The notes below the pieces were generated by a model. That model made no database searches and was not told where the DNA came from. It worked only from the letters and a program-made list of their open reading frames with translations. This document shows, one piece after another, positions 18,386 through 52,389 of a DNA stretch of 53,893 nucleotides. The first letter of the stretch is position 1; each line of letters starts with the position of its first letter. Source of the stretch: Candidatus Falkowbacteria bacterium (GTDB taxonomy: Bacteria > Patescibacteriota > Patescibacteriia > JACRDY01). The stretch lies in assembly GCA_016218485.1 (NCBI GenBank), contig JACRDY010000062.1, positions 1 to 53,893 on the forward strand. Direction: 5' to 3'. Both the position numbers and the translations under genes were made by a program.

Positions 18386-18505
18386 AAATCATAAATCCAA
18401 AATTTTAAATCCTAAATCATAAATTCCAAATCCAAAACCGTGAGTTTATTTAAGATTTAAGACATTAGAATTTATTTAGGACTTAGGATTTTGGATTTGG
18501 AATTT
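18386..18505. repeat. Mirror-microsatellite element, unit AAAT(C/T)(C/A)T; homologous to 52266-52389
   Basis: 33-nt exact match 18449-18481 to the reverse complement of 52290-52322. Confidence 0.88.
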
Positions 18506-18641
18506 TATGTTTGTAGAGACAGTTCACGACCCATCCCTGCTTGCCCTAATCAATACCTCATGGTAGAGTCTACTATTGGTATAGAGACAAACCACACACG
18601 GGCGGCCTGCCATAGCCGCTCTCACACCAAGGGGGATAATC

Positions 18642-19043
18642 ATGGCCACCGCGCGCACCTGCACCACTCCGGAACAAGGCTGGGCGCTCTACAGTCATTT
18701 CCTCGGTAACTGCCTGGCGGTCTTCCAAATGCAGCAACCGAGTGGAGACGAGGAAAATGAAGAGAGAAGGGACAGGCGAGAGCACACTATCTCCAGCACC
18801 TGGGCATACCTGACTGGCAATCTCTACATGGTCATGCGGCGGATGCAACTCCACGGTCACGAAGACACCGCGGCCAAGATGCAGCAGATCATTGATATGG
18901 TGGTCGAGCAGGATCTCACCGACCCGGCAGTGTGTGGGGCGATTGAGGCCAAACACCGGGAACTTGACCCTGGTGAACAAGCTTTCAGCGATATCCTCGC
19001 CAGACTCGAAGCCGAACGCGCCGCCAAACCCGATGTGCCGTGA
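18642..19043 (+). CDS. Hypothetical protein
   Basis: 133-aa ORF with AAGGGGG upstream and terminator-like hairpins downstream. Confidence 0.6.
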   Translation: MATARTCTTPEQGWALYSHFLGNCLAVFQMQQPSGDEENEERRDRREHTISSTWAYLTGNLYMVMRRMQLHGHEDTAAKMQQIIDMVVEQDLTDPAVCGAIEAKHRELDPGEQAFSDILARLEAERAAKPDVP

Positions 19044-19123
19044 CATCACGCGAACCGCCCGAACGAAACCGCAAAGTCGCCCTTGGACTGGTTTCGTCGG
19101 GCGGCTTTCATTTTCTGGATTCA

Positions 19124-19159
19124 AAAAACCCCGTCCCCGCAACGCGGGACGAGGTTTTT
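19124..19159. terminator. Intrinsic terminator-like hairpin between convergent genes
   Basis: AAAAAACCCCGTCCCCGC-AAC-GCGGGACGAGGTTTTT. Confidence 0.6.
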
Positions 19160-19174
19160 CGTAATTACTAGGTT

Positions 19175-19198
19175 AGTTTGGGTTTTAAAACCCAAACT
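19175..19198. repeat. 24-bp perfect palindrome with core GGGTTTTAAAACCC
   Basis: AGTTTGGGTTTTAAAACCCAAACT. Confidence 0.75.
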
Positions 19199-19215
19199 CG
19201 TGAACCACCTATGGG

Positions 19216-19704
19216 TTACCGTTTATGATTAAAGAGATACTTGATGAACGCGGCAATGCCCAGTCCCAAGAACACTACCACGAGGAGCGACACGAGCCAG
19301 CCCCACACCATCATGGTGCCGCCCCAGCCGCCATGCATGGCATAGCCAAGGCGAGATAGGCCAGACCCACCACCCCAGTTCATCATACCACCACCCATCA
19401 TCCCCCAGCCGGTATTCTGCCCGCAGTACAACTGCTTGGCCATGACGAGATGGGTGAGCGCCACATTGTCAGAATCATCACCGCCCATCATCTGCTCCAT
19501 CCACTGGTGCTGACTACCGGGATGAATCTGCTCCATGTAATAGTCCCCAATGGTTTCCAGTTGTTCATTAGACAGCTGGCTGCAGGGCGTCTTGGCATCC
19601 ACCAAGGCTTTGGCTGACGCGAAGTCTTCTCCACTGTCAGCCAGAGCGACCACTGGAGACAACACTAAAATGAACGCTAGTAAACCTAGAATTAGTTTAA
19701 GCAT
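19216..19704 (-). CDS. Secreted/membrane protein with a Met/Gly/His-rich segment
   Basis: Signal peptide, DYYMEQIHPGSQHQWMEQMMGG, GMMGGGMM, C-terminal TM. Confidence 0.75.
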   Translation of the reverse strand: MLKLILGLLAFILVLSPVVALADSGEDFASAKALVDAKTPCSQLSNEQLETIGDYYMEQIHPGSQHQWMEQMMGGDDSDNVALTHLVMAKQLYCGQNTGWGMMGGGMMNWGGGSGLSRLGYAMHGGWGGTMMVWGWLVSLLVVVFLGLGIAAFIKYLFNHKR

Positions 19705-19829
19705 AGCGTGATTAGTTAAGAGTTAATAAATCCAGCATCTTCCTGTCGGGGTATTGCACCCCACGGGAAGATGTATAGTAAGCTATCCATCCCCGCAGCA
19801 AGTTATAGGGTATTCTGCAAGGTGCTGGA

Positions 19830-20801
19830 TTAAATACCACAACCGCCACCGCCGCTGCCCCCAGATACCGGCGTAGTCACCTTAGACATAATAGCACGGA
19901 AACCCGGACCGCTGGAATACGCGGCGCTCAACAAATCTTTGGGATTGGCTTGCGACCAGCTGCTGCCCTGCGTATCCAAAAACTTAGCAATGGTCAGATA
20001 GGTATCAGGGAACCAGTAGGTGTTGACCGCTAACGCCACCTTATACATATCCGCTTCACTCACCCCCTGGGAAGCCATGAGCTCCAAGAGTCCCAGCATG
20101 GCCATCCCGTGATTGCAATCCGGAAAATAAGTGGAATTGCCGCAGCAAGGACGATAGATATTCTTGGACACGTCGGCAACGAGCTTTTGTTGCTCCGGGG
20201 TGAGACTAAAGAGCCTGTGCTTGCTGTAGTGCTCCATCACCGGACCGCTGGCCAGTGTCCAGCCGCCGGTAGAGGCAAACCCCCCGGCGCCACCATACTT
20301 CTTATCCTGCATCGGCCCAGCATCAAGTATATCATTCTGCTGACCCAAGCCTAAAGCCCACAGTAGATTCAGGATAAAAGCAGAGTTAGCCCGAGTCATC
20401 ACCAGATGGCCATTATCCGTTCCTGCCAGGAGCGCTGTTTCAGCCGGACTAAGTCCCCCACGATCCTGGTACAGGGCCAAAAACTTCGCCTGATCAATCA
20501 CGCCTGCGTCCACCAGCTGTTTCCCTAAGTCGCCCCAGGTCACCGGCAGGGTCGTACTGTCTGCCGGAAAGACGACACGCGAATAATCGGTCTCGGGCGC
20601 CGAAGCCTTGACCGCTGCGGCAGGCTGGGATCCAACGTTAGCGCCTGGATTACTGACCCGGGTAACAGAAATCCGAAAGCTGGAAAATATCCAGAAAAAC
20701 ACACCAATCGCCATCACCAGTACGAGGGCGATAGCCACACCACGCCACAGCTCCATTGAATTCAGATAGTCTTGCGGCGACTTCTTCTGTTCTTGATCCA
20801 T
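19830..20801 (-). CDS. Membrane-anchored protein with a PCCGNS…DCNHG motif and C-terminal GGCGI
   Basis: Clustered Cys/His residues suggest metal binding. Confidence 0.78.
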   Translation of the reverse strand: MDQEQKKSPQDYLNSMELWRGVAIALVLVMAIGVFFWIFSSFRISVTRVSNPGANVGSQPAAAVKASAPETDYSRVVFPADSTTLPVTWGDLGKQLVDAGVIDQAKFLALYQDRGGLSPAETALLAGTDNGHLVMTRANSAFILNLLWALGLGQQNDILDAGPMQDKKYGGAGGFASTGGWTLASGPVMEHYSKHRLFSLTPEQQKLVADVSKNIYRPCCGNSTYFPDCNHGMAMLGLLELMASQGVSEADMYKVALAVNTYWFPDTYLTIAKFLDTQGSSWSQANPKDLLSAAYSSGPGFRAIMSKVTTPVSGGSGGGGCGI

Positions 20802-20825
20802 AGTATTGAATGAGATGAATTAATT

Positions 20826-21269
20826 TTACCAATCACGACAACAGGCGACGATTCGCTCAAATGTCTGGCGCAGACGCGTACTGTCACGGTAATAGTAGAG
20901 CCCCGTCGTCAGGAGCCAGACCGCGGCCAGTACCGCCAACGGCCAGAACCACAACCGCACCAGACCCAATGCGGCATAGGCCAGCACGGTCAGACTAAGC
21001 AGAAACGGCAAGCGCCAAATCTGCCAGTCTGCGGGCAGACGTTTCTCAGCCAGATAGTACAGGCCAACCACGCTCTGCCCCATCAGTACCGCGATCAGTT
21101 CACGGTAAGGAAACAAACCGAGCCAATACGCTCCGAGTAAGCCGAGCCACGTCGCGCTGACGCTGACACAGAGCACACAAAATTTCCAGCGGCTGAACTG
21201 TTTAACGAACAGTAACAGCACGAACAGCGCCACGATAGCCACGATGATTATCAGCACTGGGTTTGTCAT
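20826..21269 (-). CDS. Membrane protein (CVLC motif, C-terminal CC)
   Basis: Multi-TM; start overlaps the stop of the upstream gene. Confidence 0.75.
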   Translation of the reverse strand: MTNPVLIIIVAIVALFVLLLFVKQFSRWKFCVLCVSVSATWLGLLGAYWLGLFPYRELIAVLMGQSVVGLYYLAEKRLPADWQIWRLPFLLSLTVLAYAALGLVRLWFWPLAVLAAVWLLTTGLYYYRDSTRLRQTFERIVACCRDW

Positions 21270-21805
21270 ATGATCACGAGTTCAATGAACGCCGCTAAGA
21301 CTAAGAGTACGATAAAGGTCAGGATTATACCCTGCCACGACCAACGTTTCCCCTGGCGCCAGCGGCTGACCGCACTACTGAGGTATGGACTCAGTACCAT
21401 CACCAACGCGCCCAAGAGACTGCCCACTACGAAGTGATCTACCAGATACGTCCGGTTAAAGAACGAACCATAGTCGCCGAACCAGAAAAGCGAAATGGAA
21501 CCATACTGCGAGAGAATAATCCGCAATGGCCAGACGGTCAGGATGAATGACGCGCCGGCCAGCCACCATTTTTGGTAAGGAATGATCTGCCGTTTGATCA
21601 AACGATCAAACCACAGTCCCATCGCCACTGCAAACGCGCCAATCATCAGGCCAACGGAGACGCTGCTAATCCCGAAATAGAGAGCGAGCAGCGCCGCCGC
21701 TCCGGCTCCGGCCGTACAGAGCGGACAGTGCGCGCTGGACACCTGGGGTACCAGCAGTCCACCGACGATCAGCAGCGCACTGAATGTGAATATTCTGTTC
21801 TTCAT
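21266..21805 (-). CDS. Membrane protein with an AHCPLC motif
   Basis: Signal-like N-terminus, then HCPLC; multi-TM. Confidence 0.75.
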   Translation of the reverse strand: MKNRIFTFSALLIVGGLLVPQVSSAHCPLCTAGAGAAALLALYFGISSVSVGLMIGAFAVAMGLWFDRLIKRQIIPYQKWWLAGASFILTVWPLRIILSQYGSISLFWFGDYGSFFNRTYLVDHFVVGSLLGALVMVLSPYLSSAVSRWRQGKRWSWQGIILTFIVLLVLAAFIELVII

Positions 21806-21807
21806 AA

Positions 21808-22299
21808 TTACAATTCCATGAAGACCTGGCTGGAACCATCTTTGGCGATACTGTAGATGGTGAAAACATCGGTCTTTTGCCCCGGCATTCCAGGCGAACC
21901 GGCGGGCATACCGGCGAGCGCGATACCCAGAATATCCGGTTTTTCAGTCAGCAGTTTATCAATCGCTTCAATCGGTACGTGTCCTTCCACGACATAATCA
22001 CCAATGACGCTGGTGTGACAGCTGGATAAACCGGCCGGGATACTATACTCCGCCTTCACCGTGTTGATATCATCCACGTTCTTGATCTCTATATCATACT
22101 TTTTAGACTTCAAGTAGCCAACATAATTACCGCAGCAGCCACAGGTTGGCGACTTGTAGAGCACTACTTTCATGGCAGCGTTTGCCTGATTGCCGTCTGC
22201 CGGCGGGCCGCCCAAGCCGTTGGCCAGCGCCCAGCCGGCGAAGACGACAAACAGCAGGAGGAGAACTCCCCACCACCATTTTTTAGAGGTAACTGACAT
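21808..22299 (-). CDS. DUF411 (CopG-like) metal-binding protein
   Basis: YKSPTCGCC…SCHT…YVVEGHVP…GMPAGSPGM. Confidence 0.9.
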   Translation of the reverse strand: MSVTSKKWWWGVLLLLFVVFAGWALANGLGGPPADGNQANAAMKVVLYKSPTCGCCGNYVGYLKSKKYDIEIKNVDDINTVKAEYSIPAGLSSCHTSVIGDYVVEGHVPIEAIDKLLTEKPDILGIALAGMPAGSPGMPGQKTDVFTIYSIAKDGSSQVFMEL

Positions 22300-22312
22300 A
22301 TGAATATACCTA

Positions 22313-22891
22313 TTATTTAACTTGACAGTCTCTGGAGCGGCTGAGGTGACCGGCTGACCAATACAAGCTCAAGCAGAGCAGCGCCACACTCACGGCGCTG
22401 AATTCCAGACCGGCCAACGGCAGCCACCCGATGAGGACGGTCGCCGCCCCAATGCCAAACAGAGCTGACAGAATGACCGAACCGCAGGAGGCACAGCCAA
22501 TACCGACGAGACTGAATAAAACGCCGATCACGCTGCCGCCCGCGCCTGCCACCAGAAACAGCCTTTGCCTGATTTGATAGACTAGAGACGCTCCATTCAA
22601 ACCGACTAAGACTGCAATCACGACAGCCAACACGAGAGAGGGACGTGTCAATTGATCAATACCAGCCAGCGCTATCGCGCCGGTCAGTTGTAATTTCTGC
22701 ACACCAGAGAAAAAACCAGAAGTCCAGATAAAACCGAGAAAACTTCTCTGCGACAGGAGCATAACTCCTGAAGCAAACAGCAGCGCCCCCACTGTCGTCA
22801 CCACCATCAACGATGGCGTCACGAGGAGCTGTCGGATAAAGCGCAGCCGCAGAGCGATGTGATGTTTGATGATGAACCAGTAGCTAAGCAT
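22313..22891 (-). CDS. Membrane protein with a GCASCG motif
   Basis: Multi-TM, intramembrane CxxC, C-terminal Cys. Confidence 0.75.
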   Translation of the reverse strand: MLSYWFIIKHHIALRLRFIRQLLVTPSLMVVTTVGALLFASGVMLLSQRSFLGFIWTSGFFSGVQKLQLTGAIALAGIDQLTRPSLVLAVVIAVLVGLNGASLVYQIRQRLFLVAGAGGSVIGVLFSLVGIGCASCGSVILSALFGIGAATVLIGWLPLAGLEFSAVSVALLCLSLYWSAGHLSRSRDCQVK

Positions 22892-22960
22892 CCTGATACT
22901 TTTTTATGTATAAGATACTTAAAAAGACCTGCCGCATACGGCCAAGGCCTGACCGTGCTC

Positions 22961-23341
22961 CTAAAAAATTTTTGGGTGCAATATACCCTGAGAAAATAAA
23001 CTGGCGAGATTATTAAAAACCGTCAATTGTCCAAAATGATCACGAATGCTCCGAATATAATACAACGCCCGGTCCACCCACCACCCTCGTGACAAAACCA
23101 CCAAGAGCATCAGCACGAGCAAGCAGAGCATGAACAGCACAAACGAACTCGTCATCGCCGGCATCATGACCGCAGTACTCAAACAAATCGTACCCCTATG
23201 AGCGCTGGCAGCGCCGCAGTGAGCGCTACTCATAGCCGGCGTTGGGCTAAAAAAAATGCTCTGCCAGGCAGCGGCACAGCAAAAAGCAAAAGAAACAATC
23301 AAGATAACGGCTAATAGATTACGGCTTTTGAGAGCTAGCAT
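22961..23341 (-). CDS. Small membrane protein heading the Cys-rich cluster, ending …LFSQGILHPKIF
   Basis: Two hydrophobic segments with His/Cys/Met between them; ATG at 23341 chosen. Confidence 0.6.
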   Translation of the reverse strand: MLALKSRNLLAVILIVSFAFCCAAAWQSIFFSPTPAMSSAHCGAASAHRGTICLSTAVMMPAMTSSFVLFMLCLLVLMLLVVLSRGWWVDRALYYIRSIRDHFGQLTVFNNLASLFSQGILHPKIF

Positions 23342-23449
23342 AGGGATACTGACAGTATGCCGCAAAAAATTAAAAAAGTCAAAGATTTCCCAACACTCAA
23401 TACTTTAATCCCCACAAATTACTCATTTCAATCAATGGAGTAGCTGATT

Positions 23450-23552
23450 AAAGAGAAATTGGAAATTGGAAATTAAAAACACGGCTTTTGGTCGTTAACC
23501 AGGGTTTTAAAACCCTGGTTAACGGACAATTTCTAATTTCCAATTTCTCTTT
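23450..23552. repeat. Mirror-microsatellite element, unit AAATTGG, with a nested palindrome
   Basis: Perfect 18-bp IR AAAGAGAAATTGGAAATT (23450-23467 / 23535-23552). Confidence 0.88.
23493..23524. repeat. 32-bp perfect palindrome with core GGGTTTTAAAACCC
   Basis: CGTTAACCAGGGTTTTAAAACCCTGGTTAACG. Confidence 0.85.
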
Positions 23553-23699
23553 ATCTATCCCCTTAATCAGGGTACATTATAGATGCCCAGAAATCAATTT
23601 CCCCCTTATTCATTGCTGCTTCCCGCGCACTATTGGAAAGGCAAAACTCACCATCAGACGGGAATTTTGCTGTCACCACTATAATTATTCCGTACAAAA

Positions 23700-23771
23700 T
23701 TGGGCCGGCAGGATTCGAACCCGCGAATGCCGGGACCAAAACCCGGTGCCTTACCACTTGGCTACGGCCCA
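23700..23771 (-). tRNA. tRNA-Gln(TTG)
   Basis: TGGGCCGTAGCCAAGTGGTAAGGCA-CCGGG TT TTG GT CCCGG…GGTTCGAATCC. Confidence 0.95.
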
Positions 23772-23852
23772 ATACTATGCGGGATAAAAAAGTTGCGCAG
23801 CGCCATTCTACGAAGTTTTAGATGAAAAGTCAATTAAAACGTCTTGAGAAGA

Positions 23853-24043
23853 AAGATAGTTAAATTGTCACATTGCTAAATTGCCACATTGCTATATTGT
23901 TAAATTGTCAAATGGCTACATTACCAAATAGTTATATTGCCATACTGTTACCGGCGCTACTCAATGATGCAACAATATAACCATATAACAATATGACGAT
24001 GTAGCAATGTGGCAATTTAGCAATGTAGCCATACAACCATCTT
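23853..24043. repeat. Long mirror-microsatellite element, 8-mer ACATTGCT/AGCAATGT
   Basis: About 12 units left and about 9 right; perfect 25-bp IR 23870-23894 / 24002-24026. Confidence 0.9.
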
Positions 24044-24046
24044 CAC

Positions 24047-24958: not shown

Positions 24959-24963
24959 AGGAG

Positions 24964-25041
24964 AGTTAGAAAGTTAAAAGTTATAAAGTTGAAAGTACGA
25001 GACTTAGAACTTTCAACTTTATAACTTTCAACTTTCAACTT
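24964..25041. repeat. Mirror-microsatellite element, unit AAAGTT(AT/G/A), between ftsE and ftsX
   Basis: Shares AAAGTTATAAAGTTGAAAGTACG with the element at 42976. Confidence 0.9.
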
Positions 25042-25720: not shown

Positions 25721-25721
25721 A

Positions 25722-26013
25722 GATGGCGATGCTGACATTGCTACATTGAGATGGTTACAAAACTGTTTTTAAGCGAGACGCAGGACTTTTTGGCCAAGGC
25801 GAGGAAAACCAGTGAAATGATTTGAGGCGTAATATCATTACGGTGAAAATCATTTCGCGCTAGTTTGACGAAGCCTTGGACGAAAAGGACCAGTCGCAGC
25901 AAAAAGAGTTTTGTAACCATCTCATTGTTATTCAGAGCAACGAACAGTGCGGCAATTTGGCAATGTAGCAATTTAGCAATTTAACAATGTAGCAATGTAG
26001 CAATGTAACCATC
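25722..26013. repeat. Mirror-microsatellite element, 8-mer ACATTGCT, interrupted by a MITE
   Basis: 37-nt exact match 25936-25972 to 40628-40664. Confidence 0.85.
25748..25923. mobile_element. 176-bp MITE with a 17-bp TIR and ATT target duplication
   Basis: ATT[GAGATGGTTACAAAACT…AGTTTTGTAACCATCTC]ATT; imperfectly palindromic interior; the uninterrupted paralogous site is at about 40612-40640. Confidence 0.85.
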
Positions 26014-26018
26014 CCTTG

Positions 26019-26777: not shown

Positions 26778-26790
26778 TCTTCTCTATAAT
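26762..26790 (+). promoter_or_regulatory. Promoter of the tRNA-Gly/Thr unit
   Basis: TTGATT-17 nt-TATAAT. Confidence 0.6.
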
Positions 26791-26804
26791 CGTAGTACTT
26801 TTGT

Positions 26805-35091: not shown

Positions 35092-35158
35092 TGCAGCCAA
35101 ATAAACACTATGGATAATTTTAATAAAAAAACACCTGCTCAAGAGAGAAAGTGTTTTT

Positions 35159-35231
35159 TGGTGGGTCCGGAGAGAATCGGACTCGTCAACGCGGCCGATA
35201 ATCGGCCCGCTCTCCATTATGAGCTACGGAC
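35159..35231 (-). pseudogene. tRNA-Lys duplicate with the anticodon arm replaced by GGCCGATWATCGGCC
   Basis: 59-nt exact duplication (35126-35184 = 35236-35294, period 110) covering the tRNA 3' end and terminator. Confidence 0.85.
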
Positions 35232-35268
35232 AAACAAAAAACACCTGCTCAAGAGAGAAAGTGTTTTT

Positions 35269-35343
35269 TGGTGGGTCCGGAGAGAATCGGACTCTCGACG
35301 CCGAGCTTAAAAGGCTCGCGCTCTACCACTGAGCTACGGACCC
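35269..35343 (-). tRNA. tRNA-Lys(TTT), CCA encoded
   Basis: GGGTCCG…CGAGC CT TTT AA GCTCG…CGGACCC-A-CCA; atypical T-loop TCCGATT. Confidence 0.9.
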
Positions 35344-35678: not shown

Positions 35679-35819
35679 AATAATTACGAATTACTAACAG
35701 GAGTTACGCACTTCTAAAATTTTCAGCTAATTTTAGAGTAACAATAAAAATTATTAACAGCTAATTTTAGCCAATTTTTATTAAAAGTGCGTAACTCCTG
35801 TTAGTAATTCGTAATTATT
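35679..35819. repeat. Mirror element (AATTACG class) with a MITE at its exact centre
   Basis: Perfect 19-bp IR AATAATTACGAATTACTAA directly flanking the MITE. Confidence 0.88.
35698..35800. mobile_element. 103-bp MITE, copy 2 (inverted)
   Basis: Exact reverse complement of 3141-3243. Confidence 0.9.
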
Positions 35820-35838: not shown

Positions 35839-36906
35839 CTACCCCTTGTTTGTCAATTCTCTAATGATTGCAAGCAATGCCTGTGTCGCGCCCGGTTTGA
35901 GTAATGATTTAATATTTCGGGATAGCTGATCGCGATCTGACGGATTATCCAAGAGCGCCTTAAGCTGCGCCACGAATCCGGCGCTGTCTAATCCTGATTG
36001 TGGTAAATACACCGCCGCGTGACTGTGAGCAAAGTACACAGCATTAGCTTCCTGATGGCTCTGCGGCAGTGGAATCACCACCGTCGGCTTACCCAATGCC
36101 GCCAGTTCACTCAAAAAACCAAATCCCGCGCGCGACACCACCACATCAGCCACCGCCAGAGCATCTGGCATTTCTGCCTGCAAAAATTCATAGGGATGGT
36201 ACCGCTCTACGGGCGCACTGACCACGCTCTTTCCCGCTCCGGTCACGTGGATGATTTGGCAGAATGCCGTCAAGTCAGACAAGCTGTCAGCCACTAACTG
36301 ATTGAGTACTGTTGCCCCGGTGCCTCCACCGATAACCAGAACTGTTGGCAGAGACGAGTCTAAACCGAAACGGTGGAGCGCGGAAGCTCTGCTCCCGGTC
36401 AGAATGCTCTGCCGCACGGGGTTGCCGATCCAGACAGTTTTAATGCGATTGAAATACGGCAGCGATTCGGCCAGCGCCACGGTAATACGCTGGGCAAACG
36501 GCGCCGAGAGTTTATTCGCCAATCCCGGAAGACAATCTTGCTGATGGACGACGACCGGAATCCGCAAGAGCCACGCCGAGAAGACCACCGGTACAGCGAT
36601 GAAACTGCCGGCGCTGACCACCACCTCCGGCTGCAGCCGATGGAGCAGCGCCAGACTCTGGATACAACCGTAGATAATTCTGAACGGATCCAAAAAATTT
36701 TGCAGCGAAAAATACCGGCGCACTTTGCCACCGCTGATCGGCTGAAAAGTAATACCGGCGTCAGTCACGACTTGGCGCTCGGGACCATTGGCGGTGCCTA
36801 TCCAAAAAAGCTCATCAACCGAACTGGCTGATTGCAGCGCTTCACTGACCGCCAGGAGCGGTGTGACTGAACCCATTGTTCCTCCACCGGCAAAGAGTAT
36901 TTTCAT
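35839..36906 (-). CDS. murG: MurG glycosyltransferase
   Basis: GGGTMGSVTP, GNPVR, GGGTGA, SRAG, HQEANA. Confidence 0.94.
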   Translation of the reverse strand: MKILFAGGGTMGSVTPLLAVSEALQSASSVDELFWIGTANGPERQVVTDAGITFQPISGGKVRRYFSLQNFLDPFRIIYGCIQSLALLHRLQPEVVVSAGSFIAVPVVFSAWLLRIPVVVHQQDCLPGLANKLSAPFAQRITVALAESLPYFNRIKTVWIGNPVRQSILTGSRASALHRFGLDSSLPTVLVIGGGTGATVLNQLVADSLSDLTAFCQIIHVTGAGKSVVSAPVERYHPYEFLQAEMPDALAVADVVVSRAGFGFLSELAALGKPTVVIPLPQSHQEANAVYFAHSHAAVYLPQSGLDSAGFVAQLKALLDNPSDRDQLSRNIKSLLKPGATQALLAIIRELTNKG

Positions 36907-36911
36907 ATTTT

Positions 36912-37000
36912 AGATTGTAGATTTCAGATTGCAGATTTCAGATTTGTTATAGTAGTAACGTTACATGCCGACTCAATCTGCAATCTGAAATCTGCAATCT
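36912..37000. repeat. Mirror-microsatellite element, unit AGATT(G/T)C, between ftsW and murG
   Basis: Perfect 19-bp IR 36926-36944 / 36982-37000. Confidence 0.9.
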
Positions 37001-37001
37001 T

Positions 37002-38108
37002 TTATATTTTACTGAACCGGCTGATATTCAGCAAAATACCCACGGCCGCTAAACTAGTCATCAGCGCCGTGCCGCCCGCGCTGATAAAGGGCAACGGGAT
37101 ACCGGTCATCGGCAGGAGCGAGAGCATCCCCATGATATTGATAAATGACTGAAAAATCAACCAGGTGATAATCCCGATCACCAACAGCCGGGAAAACCGA
37201 TCTGGCGTATTTTTGGCGAGCACAAATCCCCGATGAGCGAAAAACAGCAGGAGCCCAATGAACGCCGTGGTAAACAGGAACCCTAACTCCTCACCGATAA
37301 TAGCAAAGATACTGTCGCCCGTCACCTCCGGCAAATAGGAAAATTTCTGACGGCTATGCCCCAAACCGACACCGAAAAATCCGCCGGAGCCGACGGCAAT
37401 CAAGGACTGCCAGATATGGTAAGCAATCCCCTGCGGATCACGTTCAGGGTGCAGGAAGGCGGTAAAGCGATCCATCCGGTAGGGCGCGATTTTTACCAGC
37501 GCCAAAAACCCCGCCAGGCCGACCGCGCCAATAATCCCCAAATGTTTAAGGCTGCCGCCGCCAACAAAATACATAATCACCGCGGTAATCACGATAATAG
37601 ACAGTGTCCCTAAGTCAGGCTGTAAGAGCATCAAGACTGAAATAATCCCGAGTACTATCGCAAAAGGCAAAAAACTGTTATGCAAATCCTGCACCCGCTT
37701 CTCGCCGCGACCATCCAGCCAGGCCGCCAGGTAAATCAGAAACGTCAGTTTAACGATTTCCGCCGGCTGCACGGAAAAACCAAGAATCGTTATCCAGCTC
37801 TTGGCGCTGCCATACTCGGCGCCCAGTCCGGGAATAAAAACAAGCGTCAACAGCGCTATGGAAAAAATTAACAATGGCCAAGCCAGCTGCTTCAGCTTAG
37901 TATAGTGAAAACGGGAAAAAAAGAAAAACAGCGCTACACCAGGCAGTAAGCCGGTAACAATCTGGTGAATGACAAAGTAGTATGGTTGATTAAATTTCTG
38001 ATAGGCAATCGGCGTGCTGGCTGAAGATAAAACAATAAAACCGAAGAGGAGGAGCACCACCACTATGCCCAGAAGCAGGTAATCCGGCTGATGTCCGCGG
38101 TGCTGCAT
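37002..38108 (-). CDS. ftsW: Cell division SEDS protein FtsW
   Basis: QPAEIVK, QPDLGT, GLGHSRQKFSYLPE; located between murD and murG. Confidence 0.92.
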   Translation of the reverse strand: MQHRGHQPDYLLLGIVVVLLLFGFIVLSSASTPIAYQKFNQPYYFVIHQIVTGLLPGVALFFFFSRFHYTKLKQLAWPLLIFSIALLTLVFIPGLGAEYGSAKSWITILGFSVQPAEIVKLTFLIYLAAWLDGRGEKRVQDLHNSFLPFAIVLGIISVLMLLQPDLGTLSIIVITAVIMYFVGGGSLKHLGIIGAVGLAGFLALVKIAPYRMDRFTAFLHPERDPQGIAYHIWQSLIAVGSGGFFGVGLGHSRQKFSYLPEVTGDSIFAIIGEELGFLFTTAFIGLLLFFAHRGFVLAKNTPDRFSRLLVIGIITWLIFQSFINIMGMLSLLPMTGIPLPFISAGGTALMTSLAAVGILLNISRFSKI

Positions 38109-40583: not shown

Positions 40584-40676
40584 ATAGTTACACTGTTACA
40601 TTGCTACATTGCTACATTGTTATTTATAGCAACGAACAGTGCGGCAATTTGGCAATGTAGCAATGTAACCATCTCA
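40584..40676. repeat. Mirror-microsatellite element, 8-mer ACATTGCT (empty-site paralogue of 25722-26013)
   Basis: ctacattgttatttatagcaacgaacagtgcggcaatttggcaatgtagcaatgtaaccatctc. Confidence 0.88.
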
Positions 40677-41069
40677 TTATAAATTAATCCAAACCAGCAA
40701 GCTGCCGCCTAAGAGCAAGAGCGCGGTCATCAGTGCGGTCACCCCGCCCAAGAGGTACGCGGCCAGACGCTGCTCTTGATAAAAAACCAAGGCCAGAACG
40801 ACATTGACCAGCCAGAGAAACGTCCCGACCGCCGGCGTCAGGTACAGCGAATACCAAGAACCGATCAGGTCAATGCCGAAATACACCGAGTAGTGCAAAA
40901 CCAGCGGATCAGCTGACGGTTTGACCAGCAAGTAGAGTACCAGATAGAGCACACAATTCAATACCAGCGCGAACAAAAATAACAGCAACAAAAGACGATC
41001 TTGCAAAAAAATTAAATTCAGCCGAGCCTTAATACCGTGGCTCCACAGGCTTAACCGGGTCAGTGGCAT
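40677..41069 (-). CDS. Membrane protein (3 TM) upstream of mraY
   Basis: LVLHYSVYFGIDLIGSW motif between TM segments. Confidence 0.75.
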   Translation of the reverse strand: MPLTRLSLWSHGIKARLNLIFLQDRLLLLLFLFALVLNCVLYLVLYLLVKPSADPLVLHYSVYFGIDLIGSWYSLYLTPAVGTFLWLVNVVLALVFYQEQRLAAYLLGGVTALMTALLLLGGSLLVWINL

Positions 41070-42913: not shown

Positions 42914-42975
42914 GCTACCACCAATGATATATGCCTGCCCTGGCTTGGTAAAATCAAACGATGGAGGAGGAAACA

Positions 42976-43043
42976 GTTGAAAGTTATAAAGTTGAAAGTA
43001 CGGAATTTTTAACTTTATAACTTTCAACTTTATAACTTTCAAC
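42976..43043. repeat. Mirror-microsatellite element, unit AAAGTT(AT/G), between pilB and pilC
   Basis: Perfect 24-bp IR 42976-42999 / 43020-43043; ends 2 nt before the ATG. Confidence 0.92.
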
Positions 43044-43045
43044 AT

Positions 43046-44128: not shown

Positions 44129-44129
44129 T

Positions 44130-46286: not shown

Positions 46287-46288
46287 GC

Positions 46289-46894: not shown

Positions 46895-46900
46895 TCAGCT

Positions 46901-48409: not shown

Positions 48410-48433
48410 GCTGGTTAATCATCTCAATAACCT

Positions 48434-49696
48434 ATGGATCTGTCATGGTCAAAACTCAATACCACCCCCGCCACCATGCCCTTTGGTTTGGATATTTCTG
48501 ATGGCATGATCCGGGCGGTTCAGCTGAAACGACAGGGCGCTAAGTCATTCAGTCTGCGCTGTAAGCATGAGCTGCCGCTGCCCTCCGGCGTCATCCAGTC
48601 GGGTGAAATTTTGGATCAAGTAAAATTAAGCGGTTACATAAACAAATTAATCACCCGGCGCAGCGCTGATCAATTTGGTCAGCGGATCACTGCCCGAGAA
48701 GTCATCTCGGTACTGCCGGAACCGAAAACCTTCATCAAACTCGTAACCTTTGCCTGGCCGGCGAATGCCAGAGAGAGCGACAGCGCCAGCCAAGCGTCAA
48801 CCGATCCGTCGGCCACCATCCAGACTGTTTTGGCTCAAGAGTTGTCAGAAGACATCCCCCTGTCGCTTGAGGACGCCACCTATGATTACCATATCCTGCG
48901 GGGTAATCCTCATACCGCCAAACCAGGCGACACCATCCAACTGCTGACAGCTATAGCGCCAAAAAAAATAGTTGCCGACTACACGGCCGTCTTGGAAGCC
49001 AGCGGCCTGGTACCAGTGGCACTGGAAGTAGAGGGGTTAGCCATCGCCCGAGCGGTCATCCCCTGGACGCCGCAGCCATCTGCTCCGTCGGCCGCTGACA
49101 CGATTAATATTATTGTTGACCTGGGAGCCAACCGCACTGGCATGATCATCTACCACAATGGCATCATCCGCTATTCCTTGAGCGTACCGGTCTCGGGGCG
49201 AGCCATCAGCCAAAAAATTGCTGACAAGGAAAAAATTTCATTCCCGGAAGCTGAAAAAATGAAACTTAGCCACTCGCTCACCGGCGGCAATTCAGACATT
49301 GACGCCATCATCCGCTCATCCCTGGACATTCTGATCAGTCGCCTGCGCGAAGCTCTTGTCTTCTGCCAGGTAAAACTCTCAGACAGCGTCAAACCGCAGA
49401 TACTGCTCTGTGGGGGCGGCGCGCTCTGGGCAGGGCTGACGGCCATGCTCAGTCAACAGCTCAACGTGCCGGTCGGCATCGCTGACCCGTTCGTCAATTT
49501 TAGTAATAAATCCAGCATATTCCTGTCGGAGTATTACACGTCGCGGGAATACTCTCTCAACCATTCATCCCCGCAGCAAGCTGACGGGGTATTCGGGAAG
49601 GTGCTGGATAAACCATCGGGCATCAGCGCCAGCTCGGCACTGTCCCTCACGACCGCTATCGGTCTGGCGCTGGGAGGTCTCTATGATTACGCTTAA
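48434..49696 (+). CDS. pilM: Type IV pilus assembly protein PilM
   Basis: FGLDISD, VDLGA, LCGGGA actin-like motifs, IGLAL. Confidence 0.88.
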   Translation: MDLSWSKLNTTPATMPFGLDISDGMIRAVQLKRQGAKSFSLRCKHELPLPSGVIQSGEILDQVKLSGYINKLITRRSADQFGQRITAREVISVLPEPKTFIKLVTFAWPANARESDSASQASTDPSATIQTVLAQELSEDIPLSLEDATYDYHILRGNPHTAKPGDTIQLLTAIAPKKIVADYTAVLEASGLVPVALEVEGLAIARAVIPWTPQPSAPSAADTINIIVDLGANRTGMIIYHNGIIRYSLSVPVSGRAISQKIADKEKISFPEAEKMKLSHSLTGGNSDIDAIIRSSLDILISRLREALVFCQVKLSDSVKPQILLCGGGALWAGLTAMLSQQLNVPVGIADPFVNFSNKSSIFLSEYYTSREYSLNHSSPQQADGVFGKVLDKPSGISASSALSLTTAIGLALGGLYDYA

Positions 49697-50225
49697 CCTG
49701 CTCGACCAAAAAAGGAAAAACAGCTACCACTGGCGGCGGCTGCTCTTGACGATACAGTCCGGTATTGAGCTCTGGTTCTTTACCATCCTCTGCTTAGGCA
49801 TCATCTTTTCTGCCGCCGAGTATTTTTTACAAACTAATTTTGAAGACACCACGGCGCAAAACGCGCTGATCAATCAAACAATCGGCGGCGACCAGCAAGA
49901 AATTCTGGCGATCAATTACCAACTCAAAGAGATCGACGGTATGCAGCGAGAATACATCGCCTGGGATCCCTTCCTGATGGCGCTCGTCAATGTTATCCCA
50001 CCCGACCTGAAACTGCGCAACCTGACCATTGACGCCACCGCCATGACCGTGGATATTACCGGTATAGCCAAAGACCGCGCCACCCTCTTGAAACTGAAGA
50101 GCGGCCTCGCCAATCTCTACGTGACCGACAAAGTCAATTCCCCGATTGATAACCTGCTCCGGAAAGACAATATTGATTTTGCTTTTCATCTGCTCTTGAA
50201 CCCTCAGCGACTCCGCTATGATTAA
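49683..50225 (+). CDS. pilN: PilN-like protein
   Basis: MITLNLL N-terminus, TM; follows pilM. Confidence 0.78.
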   Translation: MITLNLLDQKRKNSYHWRRLLLTIQSGIELWFFTILCLGIIFSAAEYFLQTNFEDTTAQNALINQTIGGDQQEILAINYQLKEIDGMQREYIAWDPFLMALVNVIPPDLKLRNLTIDATAMTVDITGIAKDRATLLKLKSGLANLYVTDKVNSPIDNLLRKDNIDFAFHLLLNPQRLRYD

Positions 50226-50799
50226 CGCCAGCAATAAAACAATCGTCCTCGCCACGATCCTGATCCTGATTGTCTGCACCGCCGGCATCAGCCTATTCAT
50301 CATTTACCCGAAAATAGTAACCATTAAAATGATCAGTGACGACGTGCAAAACCAAAAACAGGAGCTAGAAGAAAAATACCAGCGGGGCCAGAGCTTGCGA
50401 GCAATCTACGCTAATATAGCAACGGTGAAACAAAACCGTGATCGGCTGAACGCTACGGTGATTGAACAGGATAATGAGCTGGAATTCATCACCGCGCTGG
50501 AAAAAACGACTGAGGGTTTAGCGGTCAATCAGAATATCGTCCTCTCCCCGCCGAACCTCAAAGCCCCCACCAACAAACTGCAACTACTGGCTATCACCGT
50601 GACCCTGGATGGCGGCTTCATTGATATCCTGAAAACGGTTGAACGGATTGAACAGCTGCCCTACTACCTCATCGTGGAAAAGTTAGATTTCTCAAGCGAC
50701 CAAACAATCAACAGCCCCAGCGCTCCCGATCAGACGCCGCTGCCGAATCAACGCGTCCGCGCGGTACTGAAAGGAAAAATTTATTGGATGCCGCACTAA
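50218..50799 (+). CDS. pilO: PilO-like protein
   Basis: TM, coiled coil, ERIEQLP; follows pilN. Confidence 0.72.
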   Translation: MINASNKTIVLATILILIVCTAGISLFIIYPKIVTIKMISDDVQNQKQELEEKYQRGQSLRAIYANIATVKQNRDRLNATVIEQDNELEFITALEKTTEGLAVNQNIVLSPPNLKAPTNKLQLLAITVTLDGGFIDILKTVERIEQLPYYLIVEKLDFSSDQTINSPSAPDQTPLPNQRVRAVLKGKIYWMPH

Positions 50800-50800
50800 T

Positions 50801-51067
50801 ATGATCAAACTATCTCCCCCAAAAATAAATACTCTGGTATTCCTGATCATTATCCTCCTCATCGTCGCCATGCTCGGCTGGTCAGTCTATTTTATCTACC
50901 AGTACGTCTACCGCACGATTATTCTCGTGCCCGATCTGGAGAGCCTGAAACTGAAAACCTCCGTCAGCGCCGTGCGGATTGATCTCTTTGACGCCATTCA
51001 AACCAAACTGCAACAAAAAACCGCTGACCGATCAACTAACTGGTCAACGATCCATAACCCGTTTTAA
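50801..51067 (+). CDS. Small membrane protein ending NPF, in the PilP position
   Basis: TM, C-terminal HNPF; last gene of the pilus operon. Confidence 0.65.
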   Translation: MIKLSPPKINTLVFLIIILLIVAMLGWSVYFIYQYVYRTIILVPDLESLKLKTSVSAVRIDLFDAIQTKLQQKTADRSTNWSTIHNPF

Positions 51068-52251
51068 TGCTCTCGCGCTCGCCAAGCTACGTCCTGGGCA
51101 CGGCGAATAATTGCCGGCGCGGAACGCAAAAAATAATTCACCTCGGCAGCCGTGGTACCACGTCCGAGGGTCAGACGAATACTGCCCGCCACTGCCCAAG
51201 CCGGCAGTCCCATAGCCAAGAGTACGTGTGAAGGCTCTATTGAACCTGAAGCGCAGGCCGAGCCGGTGGAGACGGCCATACCGGCGCTGTCGAGCATCAG
51301 CATCAGCCGCTCCCCTTCCACGCCAGTGCAGCTGAAATTAAGATTATTGGGTAATCGTTTCTCAAAACTGCCGTTGATCTGCAGCTTGGGAATTTTTTTT
51401 AGTAACTGCTGGTATAATTGATCACGGAGCAACCGAACAACGGCAGCATCTCGCTGCGGCCGCAATAATTTCACTGCCTCGGCCAGTCCAACAATCAGCG
51501 GCGTATTCAGCGTCCCGGGACGCAATCCCCCCTCCTGGCTGCCCCCGTGCAGAACTGATTTTATTTTTACGCCGGAGCGGACAAACAGCGCGCCGACGCC
51601 TTTCGGTCCATAAATCTTGTGTCCCGACAGAGACAGTAGATCAGCCCGCAAATACCCGACATCGCAGTTAAGATAATTAATTGCCTGGACCGCGTCAGTG
51701 TGCAAGTAAATTCGCTGCGCGCGGCCGCGGTTAAGCCGCTCCAGGAGCTTGCCAATATCGCGCACCGGCTGAATCGTGCCAACTTCATTATTGGCATACA
51801 TCAACGAAATCAACACCGTGGTCGGTCTGATTAATTTTTTGACCGCCTCAAATTTAACCACTCCATCCACGCCAACCGGAACATAATCAACCCGCGCTAA
51901 CCCTTCTGATTCAAGGGCGCGTACAGTCTCCAGCACGGCCGGGTGTTCAATGACTGAAGTAATGATATGTGGACGCCGCAGCGTACTCGCCGCGACCACA
52001 CCGCGAATCGCCAAATTGTCCGCCTCTGTTGCGCCGCTAGTGAAAACTATTTCAGTGGCTGAACAGCCTAAAAATTGAGCGATGCTCGCCCGAGCTGAAT
52101 CAATCGCCGCGGCGGCCGCGCGTCCGGGAGTATGCAGGGACGAGGGATTGCCAAACTGAACGGAAAAAAACGGCCGCATGGCTGCCACCACCCGCGGATC
52201 CACCGGCGTACTCGCGGCACAGTCAAAATAGATTTGTTTTCTTGGGGGCAT
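51064..52251 (-). CDS. iscS: Cysteine desulfurase (IscS/NifS family)
   Basis: FGNPSS, FTSGATEA, HTDAVQ, SGHKIYGPKG, STGSAC. Confidence 0.92.
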   Translation of the reverse strand: MPPRKQIYFDCAASTPVDPRVVAAMRPFFSVQFGNPSSLHTPGRAAAAAIDSARASIAQFLGCSATEIVFTSGATEADNLAIRGVVAASTLRRPHIITSVIEHPAVLETVRALESEGLARVDYVPVGVDGVVKFEAVKKLIRPTTVLISLMYANNEVGTIQPVRDIGKLLERLNRGRAQRIYLHTDAVQAINYLNCDVGYLRADLLSLSGHKIYGPKGVGALFVRSGVKIKSVLHGGSQEGGLRPGTLNTPLIVGLAEAVKLLRPQRDAAVVRLLRDQLYQQLLKKIPKLQINGSFEKRLPNNLNFSCTGVEGERLMLMLDSAGMAVSTGSACASGSIEPSHVLLAMGLPAWAVAGSIRLTLGRGTTAAEVNYFLRSAPAIIRRAQDVAWRAREH

Positions 52252-52265
52252 ACTGCATTAGAATG

Positions 52266-52389
52266 AAATTATAAATTCAAAATTATAAATCCTAAATAAA
52301 TTCTAATGTCTTAAATCTTAAACAAACCGGTGGTTTTGAATTTAGAATTTATGATTTATTTAGGGCTTAGAATTTTGGATTTAGAATTT
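52266..52389. repeat. Mirror-microsatellite element, inverted homologue of 18386-18505
   Basis: AAAT(T/C)NN heptamers with an inverted arm; 33-nt identity to 18449-18481. Confidence 0.88.

Follow-up and report, generated by a model that had tools for sequence, protein, structure and literature searches.

The eukaryotic Foldback (FB) elements have long inverted arms of short tandem subrepeats, variable in number, around a loop; those of Drosophila are much larger than the hairpins described here, duplicate their target on insertion and have known transposases associated with them. Cyanobacterial STRR are heptamer direct-repeat arrays, and the palindromic elements of Rickettsia are small hairpins of reduced genomes, sometimes located in frame inside genes. 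The REP/REPIN sequences of E. coli and Pseudomonas (PMC3116915, PMC2817692, PMC3733652, PMC3337134) are extragenic, non-coding, high-copy palindromes found in both orientations, often near stop codons and without target duplication, each a single imperfect palindrome of 20-40 nt in a genome that encodes RAYT proteins; bacterial MITEs such as Correia, ERIC and RUP (PMC3184786, PMC2229807) are small, non-autonomous, multi-copy elements with inverted-repeat ends that lie between genes or at gene ends and nest in one another; the TAACTGA repeats of Beggiatoaceae form 169 direct sets versus 1 indirect set in a Beggiatoa genome, most of them a short way before a start codon (PMC4679880); the RHE of sponge mitochondria (PMC2800124) are small hairpins that invade compact genomes; and Tm1 is a Mutator/Foldback element (PMC3169594). 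A published survey remarks in passing that inverted repeats are denser in some CPR phyla than anywhere else in life, and does not say what these repeats are (PMC13155455).

The mirror elements of the window (the whole 53,893-nt stretch of DNA analysed) share the listed traits of REP/REPIN, including RAYT-like genes in the genome, but their arms consist of tandem 7-8-nt units, and they are AT-rich, belong to dozens of sequence families and do not flank the RAYT-like genes. Like MITEs, the hairpins are small, non-coding and multi-copy and end in inverted repeats, although, unlike DDE-derived MITEs, they have no detected fixed-length target duplication. Their likeness to Foldback is one of architecture only, neither transposase nor target duplication being associated with them. 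As with STRR and TAACTGA repeats, they are intergenic tandem 7-nt arrays with a patchy phylogeny and no known spreading mechanism, but here every array faces its own reverse complement in a hairpin, unit sequences vary widely, and copying takes in the whole element together with its loop. They have no sequence relation to RHE or the Rickettsia palindromic elements, which are not known to have tandem-unit arms, and a literature search found no description of hairpin elements with tandem-unit arms. With a probability of roughly 70%, the hairpins are non-autonomous mobile DNA of a foldback/MITE/REP-like kind, copied whole and then altered by unit slippage.

Architecture and arm pairing

The host genome (G000) is that of a groundwater bacterium (981 kb, 51% GC, 91.6% complete). 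Our own scanner found 351 intergenic palindromes in the 981 kb, and relatives scanned with the same code as a control had 1-6 per 100 kb. Arms with a 7-8-nt period occur in 149 of the 351, with about 69 different unit consensus types; 251 belong to multi-copy families, with a full-length relative elsewhere (the largest clusters have 37, 30, 24, 19, 16, 16, 12, 12 and 9 members), and 100 are singletons. The mirror elements are AT-rich (mean GC 31% versus 51% for the genome), non-coding palindromic repeats of about 55-190 nt that form families, each with a family-specific core (inner stem and loop) between arms of tandem 7- or 8-nt units (Table 1). Genomes of Patescibacteria/CPR are deemed streamlined, yet small palindromic repeats of dozens of families occupy 35.7 kb, or 3.6%, of this one. 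Contigs end in the hairpins, which thus break assemblies. The only public run that contains the window was assembled independently, and this assembly spans 23853-24043, 24964-25041 and 36901-37007 with zero differences; because three elements are reproduced in this way, the elements are not artefacts of MAG assembly.

Table 1. Hairpins and inserted elements of the window (strand "." throughout); loci are counted at >=78% identity over >=60% of element length
Feature	Positions	Fold z	Loci	Remarks
AATTACG-family hairpin	2310..2383	-8.3	5	fills spacer between ABC ATPase and MacB/FtsX-type permease genes
AGTTNAA-family hairpin	3117..3307			nested 103-nt palindromic element, 3141-3243
Composite hairpin	5084..5262		8	AAATCCC outer and AATGACA inner units
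AATTACG-family hairpin	6963..7036	-7.1		between prfA and prmC
AAGATTW-unit hairpin	9640..9722	-8.9	11	
AAGATTW-unit hairpin	12000..12124	-8.8		
TGTAGCK-unit hairpin	13046..13124	-7.8		single copy in genome
TACGAAT-unit hairpin	16517..16632	-9.6	2	
AAATCC/AAGATTT-type hairpin, 7-nt units	18383..18508	-3.7	7	copy A of first pair
GAAATTG-unit hairpin	23449..23553	-11.5	12	small GC-richer palindrome in core
ATTGCYAM-type hairpin, 8-nt units	23853..24043			long; arms ~70 nt; spanned by independent contig
AGTTNAA-family hairpin	24964..25041	-8.6	26	between ftsE and ftsX (Pfam of neighbours)
GCAATGTA-family hairpin, 8-nt unit	25726..26012			MITE-split: 25726-25747 is what is left of the left arm, 25924-26012 comprises loop and right arm
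176-nt MITE	25748..25923			16-nt terminal inverted repeat starting GAGATGG; inside GCAATGTA-family hairpin
AATTACG-type hairpin	35679..35819			nested 103-nt palindromic element, 35698-35800, opposite orientation to 3141-3243
CAGATTK-unit hairpin	36901..37007	-7.5	10	between ftsW and murG; independent contig
Intact GCAATGTA-family hairpin	40584..40680	-5.2	3	MITE-free paralogue of 25726-26012
AGTTNAA-family hairpin	42975..43043	-10.4	25	between pilB-like and pilC-like genes
Reverse-complement copy of 18383-18508 element	52266..52390	-5.3	8	
CACAGAT-unit hairpin	52750..52822	-12.5	16	abuts stop codon of zf_Tbcl_2 zinc-finger gene

All 14 window elements that were folded form long hairpins as DNA, at z values between -3.7 and -12.5, and 0 of 200 shuffles were equally stable. 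Across the 24 copies of the AAAACATT family, paired cells make up 95.6%, and at one pair all four Watson-Crick combinations are seen (AT 3, GC 4, TA 4, CG 4); compensatory changes in both arms keep the arms paired. Mismatches in the sense-strand arms have no RNA-type wobble bias (G:T 49 versus A:C 55), and a search of the window with Rfam 15 at gathering score returned four tRNAs only, with no match to the hairpins. Complementarity is apparently kept at the DNA level and not via selection on RNA structure, possibly by hairpin-templated correction or because a DNA hairpin would be needed during copying.

Copying between loci and comparison with the sister genus

The sequence-only reading had singled out three pairs of elements with common segments. 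The 33-nt identity of 18449-18481 with the reverse complement of 52290-52322 and the 37-nt identity of 25936-25972 with 40628-40664, which includes the non-periodic AGCAACGAACAGTGCGG, are both exact, and no further base is identical at either end; the 23-mer of the elements at 24964 and 42976 is also confirmed, its sole occurrences being 24977-24999 and 42980-43002, and the loop portion common to this third pair is just 5 nt (GTACG). The copying claim had been staked on segments longer than those of shuffled arrays with the same units: when each pair element was divided into its 7- or 8-nt units and the order of these was shuffled, 0 of 1000 shuffles per pair reached the observed longest common run (33, 37 and 25 nt, versus null maxima of 23, 25 and 22 nt), and local alignments scored 79.5, 41.0 and 44.0 versus null means of 19.3, 18.4 and 16.7 and null maxima of 35.5, 29.5 and 31.0 (300 shuffles). 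An all-pairs check of 12 strictly periodic window elements (66 pairs; half of the six named elements were in this set, but no complete named pair) gave a longest shared run of 19 nt, a length that unit-shuffled versions of this set often exceeded (mean of maxima 16.5, highest 31). Same-unit arrays can reach long runs when shuffled, and therefore exact-run length alone is not discriminating; the named pairs beat chance through the idiosyncratic units and loops that they include.

The proposal that entire elements have spread from locus to locus as copies of either orientation is supported by the alignment of 18383-18508 with 52266-52390, which is reverse-complement, full-length and about 85% identical over 125 nt, and by genome-wide families, the copy counts that had been called for being 1 to 26 loci per window element. 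Elsewhere in the genome, two copies (C21:2341 and C24:10107) are 95.8% identical over 120 nt, with similarity that stops a few bases from the element ends, and aligned family copies have core and loop in common and lose similarity at the element edges. In 39 of 116 elements the loop alone has an exact 14-mer in common with another loop, versus 0.14 expected from shuffled loops. Whole elements were copied to unrelated intergenic sites, in either orientation, after the split from the sister genus, and after copying their outer units were gained, lost and reordered by slippage, often unequally on the two arms. The earlier statement that local slippage is insufficient by itself holds with regard to copying, with the amendment that slippage acts as well, copies differing in how many outer units they have and in how these are arranged. 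Independent slippage converging on similar arrays, without any copying between loci, would agree with the evident slippage of outer units and with chance runs of up to 31 nt in same-unit arrays, but it is hardly credible: the alignments are full-length, and its null is refuted by the 0 of 1000 shuffles that reach the observed matches and by the non-periodic loops and cores common to copies.

Gene junctions conserved between the host and the sister genus (G001) number 83, of which 11 are occupied by hairpins in both, 16 in the host only, 21 in G001 only and 35 in neither; occupancy in the two genomes is independent. The hairpin family differs at 10 of the 11 junctions occupied in both, only 3 of 128 G001 elements have a full-length counterpart in the host, and hairpin families are genome-specific. 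Examples indicate that between the genera arm sequences are more conserved than loops. Periodic hairpins occur at 15.2 per 100 kb in the host and 15.1 in G001, and at 0 in G002, G012, G014 and G024; several sampled relatives with the same operons lack the elements or nearly so. The search for empty sites in relatives that had been suggested found none for a tandem-arm hairpin, the nearest genomes having about 58% protein identity, and no close strain was found in two public collections (best FtsW identity 51%); no empty site being available, we infer insertion as an event and do not see it.

Copying is demonstrated, and the present data would look the same whether its route was transposition or ectopic gene conversion among hairpins already in place. 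Concerted evolution without transposition, in which hairpins are born locally and gene conversion seeded in AT-rich arms homogenises them, loops included, is unlikely. Units common to the arms of different loci would provide the homology, the lack of target duplication and of a linked transposase is as expected, and so are the 100 singletons, the roughly 69 unit types and the 11 junctions occupied in both genera, though 10 of these hold different families; however, conversion needs a prior similar hairpin at the recipient and leaves the occupation of sites unexplained, junction occupancy in the two genera is independent, and copies are sharp-edged against unrelated flanks. For the preferred reading of mobile hairpins copied whole, the numbers of unit types and singletons sit uneasily with a few sequence-specific transposases and leave room for local birth.

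Gene context

The elements are oriented at random with respect to the strand of the genes (P = 0.31), and the intergenic spaces they occupy are 96 tandem, 16 divergent and 14 convergent, in line with the background of 639/109/105 (gene calls throughout are crude longest-ORF calls). Neighbours of the same family are not clustered (6 observed versus 7.3 expected). Elements are closer to stop codons (median 7 nt) than to starts (median 32 nt); of 139 stop-ends, 46 fall within an element and another 30 at most 10 nt away, and 43 of 139 elements contain a neighbour's stop codon. Roughly one in three neighbouring genes thereby takes its stop codon from a hairpin, and the hairpins confound gene-start calling. 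They also lie between genes of conserved operons (prfA and prmC, ftsE and ftsX, ftsW and murG). Tolerated sites are mainly those directly at or across gene 3' ends and those inside operons, and the elements' closeness to stop codons could mean a function at mRNA 3' ends, not mere tolerance.

It is nonetheless very unlikely that these are host-selected regulatory hairpins (3'-end protection, RNase III sites, terminators, translation dampers) that spread through usefulness: the closeness to stop codons, operon-internal sites, great stability and better conservation of arms than loops between genera are set against the random orientation, the lack of preference for convergent or 3' spaces, the lack of a sense-strand G:U bias or an Rfam match, and sites that are not conserved between genera and that, in several sampled relatives with the same operons, have no or almost no elements. 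Intrinsic (Rho-independent) terminators in particular, which have a GC-rich stem with a T run after it and end transcription units, do not fit the background-like placement, occupied divergent spacers, operon-internal sites and mean GC of 31%.

One hairpin is read through in frame within the gene of a 546-aa membrane protein, where it sits in a length-variable loop and is a candidate insertion.

Candidate movers and nested elements

Flanks of the 149 periodic elements have k-mer identity at the level of shuffled pairings for k = 2-8, in a test that takes the outermost base pair as the element end and cannot register duplications that are themselves palindromic (TA, for example). With no target-site duplication, a single-strand/hairpin route or recombination is likelier than classical DDE cut-and-paste, and copying may have taken one of these courses. 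The ends of the elements start with family-specific units (AATTACG, AGTTGAA, AAAACATT and others), and a common GTAG/CGTC terminal tag was not visible by eye in the copies inspected. The host has three DDE_Tnp_1 genes; 10 nt are common to the ends of two DDE_Tnp_1 insertion sequences and AATTACG arrays, a match that random 25-mers of like AT attain in 29% of cases. A parent insertion sequence with matching ends was not found in the 91.6% complete assembly, in which repeats may be unassembled.

PF01797 matches at two host loci, and the NCBIfam RAYT model NF047646 scores one host gene at 84.7 bits (cut-off 80) and a second at 74.1 bits, with 7 RAYT matches in total. A RAYT (HUH/Y1) of the genome, recognising single-stranded DNA hairpins and moving them as REPIN-like elements without target duplication, would suit these genes and the missing duplications. 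RAYT matches are present in all five sampled genomes whose hairpin density is at least 3 per 100 kb, and the density is about 0-1 per 100 kb in four of the five sampled genomes that lack matches, in a comparison of kin that are not independent. However, tandem-arm hairpins are present within about 1.9 kb of neither of the two full-length RAYT-like genes of the host and flank none of five RAYT loci of relatives; the neighbours of the RAYT-like genes are palindromes of higher GC, some of them with a GTAG tag, and one family of these, 61 nt long, has at least 14 copies. Furthermore, G014 and G016 are rich in matches (9 each) but have about 0-1 periodic hairpins per 100 kb (100 kb sampled each), 3 hairpins occur in 200 kb of G005, a genome that lacks matches, and a handful of genes would have to serve about 69 unit types, making RAYT as the mover quite unlikely. 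The single periodic hairpin of G016 looks spurious.

Tentatively, and with considerable doubt, the hairpins may constitute a distinct prokaryotic foldback class of some Patescibacteria/CPR, with self-templating hairpin copying, no target duplication and a mover that is neither classical DDE nor typical REP-RAYT; arms would then change together, even via all four Watson-Crick pairs, because the DNA hairpin is its own template. Paralogues of a treble-clef zinc-finger protein of about 550 aa, an expanded family, have 22-23 matches in exactly those three genomes of this bacterial family in which the hairpins occur, and, as a bolder extension, the unit arrays are putative binding arrays for them. 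By another extension, arrays might grow via repeated visits of 7-bp-duplicating elements such as the nested 103-nt palindrome. Mobile hairpins of a new architecture, if truly such, would offer a way to learn how DNA moves, how palindromes are maintained and how operons are structured internally in organisms not yet grown alone.

Two ordinary MITE-like families of the host have clear 3-bp and 7-bp duplications, unlike the tandem-arm hairpins, which are preferred landing pads for both. For the pair at 25.9 and 40.6 kb, copying stands, with the refinement that the 25.9-kb element is a whole copy, not half of one, split by a MITE. This MITE is flanked by a 3-bp duplication (ATT, 25745-25747 and 25924-25926), and its removal in silico creates a junction (GCTACATT followed by GTTATT) that matches the intact copy at 40.6 kb, which serves as an "empty site" for it. 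The 103-nt palindrome has the 7-bp duplication TTAAAAG at its first location and the flanks TTACTAA/TTAGTAA at its second. The 176-nt MITE has six close copies, five of them with a perfect 3-bp direct repeat, and its terminal inverted repeat has 53 matches in the genome.

Shared hairpin elements and their families

The source genome (981 kb in 69 contigs, 50.8% GC, 91.6% complete), in which the window is contig C54, yielded 351 elements to an inverted-repeat scanner (arms of at least 18 nt, complementarity of at least 75%, span of at most 260 nt), of which 21 are in the window, one of them a tRNA; together the elements make up 3.6% of the genome (35.7 kb). Strongly periodic arms were identified in 149 elements (period 7 in 100, period 8 in 41; mean GC 31%), and 69 consensus unit types were distinguished. 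All 14 window elements tested fold as DNA into long hairpins (z = -3.7 to -12.5), with 0 of 200 dinucleotide shuffles as stable as the real sequences. An Rfam search of the window matched only four tRNAs and none of the hairpins.

The sequence-only reading proposed that whole hairpin elements had been copied between distant loci in both orientations, and the exact identities that it cited are confirmed: 18449-18481 is the reverse complement of 52290-52322 (33 nt), 25936-25972 equals 40628-40664 (37 nt), and the elements at 24964 and 42976 have in common a 23-mer (24977-24999 and 42980-43002) found nowhere else in the window. The first pair is approximately 85% identical in reverse-complement orientation across its whole 125 nt. 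In 1000 random reorderings of the 7- or 8-nt units of each paired element, the observed run was never attained for any pair; the longest common runs (33, 37 and 25 nt) exceed those of the shuffled arrays (maxima of 23, 25 and 22 nt), and the local alignment scores are far beyond the same null. Among the 12 window elements passing a strict periodicity filter, a set from which the named pairs are all absent, there is no excess (longest run 19 nt, versus up to 31 nt in shuffles). Exact-run length by itself does not discriminate between arrays of the same units; what is decisive in the named matches is that they take in idiosyncratic units and loops without periodicity.

One public DNA sequencing run (a groundwater metagenome) and no RNA run are listed as containing the window. 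An independent contig assembly of the DNA run covers three elements with zero differences, and thus the elements are not artefacts of MAG assembly. The contigs of this run yielded no presence/absence variants of the hairpins.

All-against-all BLAST placed 251 of the 351 elements in multi-copy clusters, the largest having 37, 30, 24, 19, 16, 16, 12, 12 and 9 members, with the caveat that single linkage fuses some composite elements. Genome-wide copy counts of the window elements, a check called for by the sequence-only reading, range from 1 (13046-13124) to 26 (24964-25041). In alignments, each family has a conserved core of inner stem and loop, outer units that differ in number and order between copies (the two arms often being unequal), and similarity that stops at, or a few bases from, the element edges. 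Even in the loops alone, exact 14-mers are common to 39 of 116 elements, versus an expectation of 0.14 when the loops are shuffled (at most 4 in any of 200 shuffles). The named-pair matches, the clusters and the common loops therefore support whole-element copying in both orientations, with slippage acting on top. We consider it probable (about 0.7) that the hairpins are mobile, non-autonomous elements, foldback-, MITE- or REP-like, that are copied whole and then reshaped by slippage; the main rival for how sequence passes between loci, ectopic gene conversion, appears unlikely.

Two tandem copies of a small TTAACCNGGGTTTTAAAACCCNGGTTAA-type palindrome are present in the window, and the GAAATTG/AAATTAG hairpin family (19 members, among them 23449-23553) has the same palindrome as its conserved core. 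The ORF called across that hairpin overlaps a tRNA gene and is probably spurious, which would place the hairpin between a gene and the tRNA. Elsewhere in the window, a tandem duplication spans a tRNA gene and a hairpin, and Rfam scores only one copy of this tRNA.

Coordinates of hairpins and associated features (window positions unless a contig, C plus number, of the source genome is given)
Feature	Location	Details
First named pair	18383-18508; 52266-52390	
Second named pair	25726-26012; 40584-40680	
Third named pair	24964-25041; 42975-43043	
MITE insert	25748-25923	176 nt; 16-nt terminal inverted repeats (TIRs) starting GAGATGG; flanked by 3-bp duplication ATT
Lone GAGATGG-TIR end match	5901-5916	
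103-nt near-perfect palindrome	3141-3243; 35698-35800	nested element
TTAACCNGGGTTTTAAAACCCNGGTTAA-type palindrome	13296-13362	two tandem copies
ORF call	23488-23787	overlaps tRNA gene
tRNA gene	23700-23771	minus strand
Tandem duplication	35126-35341	110 nt, 2 copies, 85% matches
tRNA gene of the duplication	35272-35343	minus strand
61-nt family, full copy	C27:45089-45149	
61-nt family, partial copies	49569-49609; 19791-19830	apparently at or within ORF ends
Palindromic stretches in RAYT-like ORFs	C27:45511-45661; C20 about 8214-8244	in frame, GC-rich
GTAG-tagged palindromes	C3:1518-1581; C38:19089-19138	adjoin RAYT-like fragments
Cys-rich paralogues, examples	C11:7944-9644; C8:19.8-25.3 kb; C49:62.9-72 kb	
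Related zinc finger	52823-53605	
In-frame AAAACAT-type hairpin	C31:7911-7966	

Nested insertions and arm pairing

The 25.9-kb element copies the 40.6-kb hairpin in its entirety but is broken by a different element, a MITE, and removal of the insert together with one ATT regains the sequence of the intact paralogue. Perfect 3-bp duplications flank five of six close copies of this MITE, the ends of which have 53 matches in the source genome and 6 in the sample of a sister genus (G001); no full-length parent was seen. The MITE family is 160-250 nt long with AT-rich 3-bp target duplications, several copies are located at contig ends, and a lone end match is present in the window. A second nested element, the 103-nt palindrome, is represented by six full copies, nearly identical to one another, and by a solitary terminal repeat where a contig ends. 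Its duplications are 7 bp long, perfect in five full copies and with a single mismatch in the other, and five of the six copies are in or next to a tandem-arm hairpin. To judge from these nested insertions, other small elements insert preferentially at the hairpins. The length of the palindrome's duplication is also the commonest unit length of hairpin arms. Unlike the two nested MITE-like families, the 149 periodic hairpins have no detectable target duplication, in a test that depends on where the element ends are set and cannot register palindromic duplications.

The 24-copy AAAACATT family has standard pairs in 95.6% of pair cells and both-side changes at 3 of 21 pairs, and one pair exhibits all four Watson-Crick combinations (AT 3, GC 4, TA 4, CG 4). 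In co-directional contexts, mismatches of the sense-strand arms show no RNA wobble bias (G:T 49 versus A:C 55). Overall, hairpin orientation has no bias with respect to gene strand (P = 0.31), a lean being observed only in two clusters, both of the GAGATGG-TIR MITE type (8:1 and 5:1). The lack of wobble bias and the random orientation thus point to arm pairing being kept at the DNA level, where it could be maintained by using one arm of the hairpin as template to correct the other or, alternatively, by a requirement for the hairpin during copying. The A-rich arm tends to come first, a strand-symmetric bias in the source genome (108 versus 35 among 149 hairpins) and in G001 (37 versus 20) that is reversed in a further relative, G018 (2 versus 7), where the same AAAAGTT-type units have the T-rich arm first in 7 of 9 cases; the bias probably reflects founder families.

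Genomic placement and distribution among relatives

The spacers that contain periodic hairpins (96 co-directional, 16 divergent and 14 convergent) match the background in proportion (639, 109 and 105), as judged from crude ORF calls with longest-ORF starts. Within the window they are found in the interior of conserved operons (prfA|prmC, ftsE|ftsX, ftsW|murG, pilB|pilC, and an ABC ATPase gene with its adjoining permease gene). Hairpins are tight on the 3' ends of genes: 46 of 139 adjoining stop codons are within the element and 30 more are at most 10 nt away, the median distance being 7 nt from stop codons versus 32 nt from starts. Local hopping was not detected, same-family neighbours being no commoner than chance (6 versus 7.3 expected), and so long-range inverted arrays around genes are accounted for by element abundance. 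An AAAACAT-type hairpin is read through in frame in a gene for a conserved 546-aa membrane protein (contig C31); alignment with 13 homologues indicated a length-variable loop rather than a demonstrable insertion.

The closest genomes compared come from the same family but from different genera (mean reciprocal-best-hit identity 58%). No close strain emerged when metagenome and genome collections were scanned with protein seeds; the nearest FtsW relatives are 47-51% identical and labelled, for example, Parcubacteria group, Moraniibacteriota or Paceibacterota, which places the organism within the Patescibacteria/CPR. With the same scanner applied to sampled DNA, periodic hairpins per 100 kb number 15.2 in the source genome, 15.1 in G001, 9 in G018, 4.5 in G004, 3 in G019, 1.5 in G005, 0.5 in G003, 1.0 each in G016 and G020 (a single match each, both of which look spurious) and 0 in G002, G012, G014 and G024; four matches in G006 were rejected as runs of N. 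More distant loci (1.34 Mb) gave 12 periodic matches, several of which are GC-rich coding false positives, and one metagenome contig has 4 in 17 kb.

At 83 gene junctions conserved between the source genome and G001, hairpins are present in both at 11, in the former only at 16, in the latter only at 21 and in neither at 35, so occupancy is statistically independent, and where both genomes have an element, the families differ at 10 of the 11 junctions. Only 3 of 128 G001 elements have a full-length counterpart in the source genome by the criteria that unite 251 of 351 elements within it; even so, the two genomes have unit types and some arm sequences in common. The pattern is that expected of lineage-specific proliferation and turnover and not of a conserved site-specific function.

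Known systems and candidate movers

The hairpins work like REP/REPIN elements and MITEs, but they differ from the former in having neither a flanking RAYT (REP-associated tyrosine transposase, Y1/HUH) nor, as judged by eye, a common tag, and in the comparison with the latter neither a target duplication nor a parent IS was found in the 91.6%-complete genome. In appearance they resemble miniature eukaryotic Foldback transposons, but they lack some of the defining features tested. Cyanobacterial heptamer direct-repeat arrays have the same unit length and a patchy distribution, but are not mirrored. The heptamer direct-repeat arrays of Beggiatoaceae also share unit length and patchy distribution, but are unmirrored (PMC4679880). 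A survey of perfect inverted repeats places two CPR phyla as the densest of all phyla and leaves the repeats uncharacterised (PMC13155455). A literature search at the level of titles and abstract openings found no description of hairpin repeats with tandem-unit arms in Patescibacteria/CPR.

The source genome has seven RAYT-like Y1 matches, including genes scoring 84.7 and 74.1 bits (cut-off 80). No tandem-arm hairpins flank these two genes or the RAYT loci of five relatives; the RAYT-like genes adjoin GC-richer palindromes, some GTAG-tagged, among them a 61-nt REP-like family of at least 14 full copies (90-100% identical). This family is found on contig C27 and at no fewer than 13 other loci, one copy being 36 nt upstream of a RAYT-like gene, and the window contains partial copies. 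In both full-length RAYT-like ORFs, a palindromic stretch separates the HUH region from the C-terminal part, and two more RAYT-like fragments adjoin GTAG-tagged palindromes. Across 13 sampled genomes, RAYT is loosely associated with hairpins: matches are present in all five genomes that bear hairpins, yet G014 and G016 have nine each with about 0-1 hairpins per 100 kb.

Three DDE_Tnp_1 genes are present in the source genome, and the ends of two have 10 nt in common with AATTACG arrays; this match between IS ends and hairpin units via GAATTACGAA is not above chance (P = 0.29 for a match of at least 10 nt). No rve, IS110-type or TnpB-type domains were found in the 91.6%-complete genome, and no multi-copy transposase among its ORF calls. 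If the hairpins are mobile as proposed, copying by a single-strand or hairpin route is favoured over DDE cut-and-paste.

The source genome's largest paralogue family comprises 21 Cys-rich proteins of approximately 560 aa with treble-clef zinc fingers at both ends; a single-sequence structure model of one was unusable (pLDDT 31.6). PF13451 matches number 23 in the source genome, 22 in G001, 23 in G004, 2 in G003 and 1 in G024; the remaining 26 relatives have none. In this bacterial family, the zinc-finger expansion coincides with hairpin-bearing genomes; G018 and G019 have hairpins without the expansion. A related zinc finger is encoded in the window, and an ACATACC-unit hairpin family flanks several of the Cys-rich paralogue genes.
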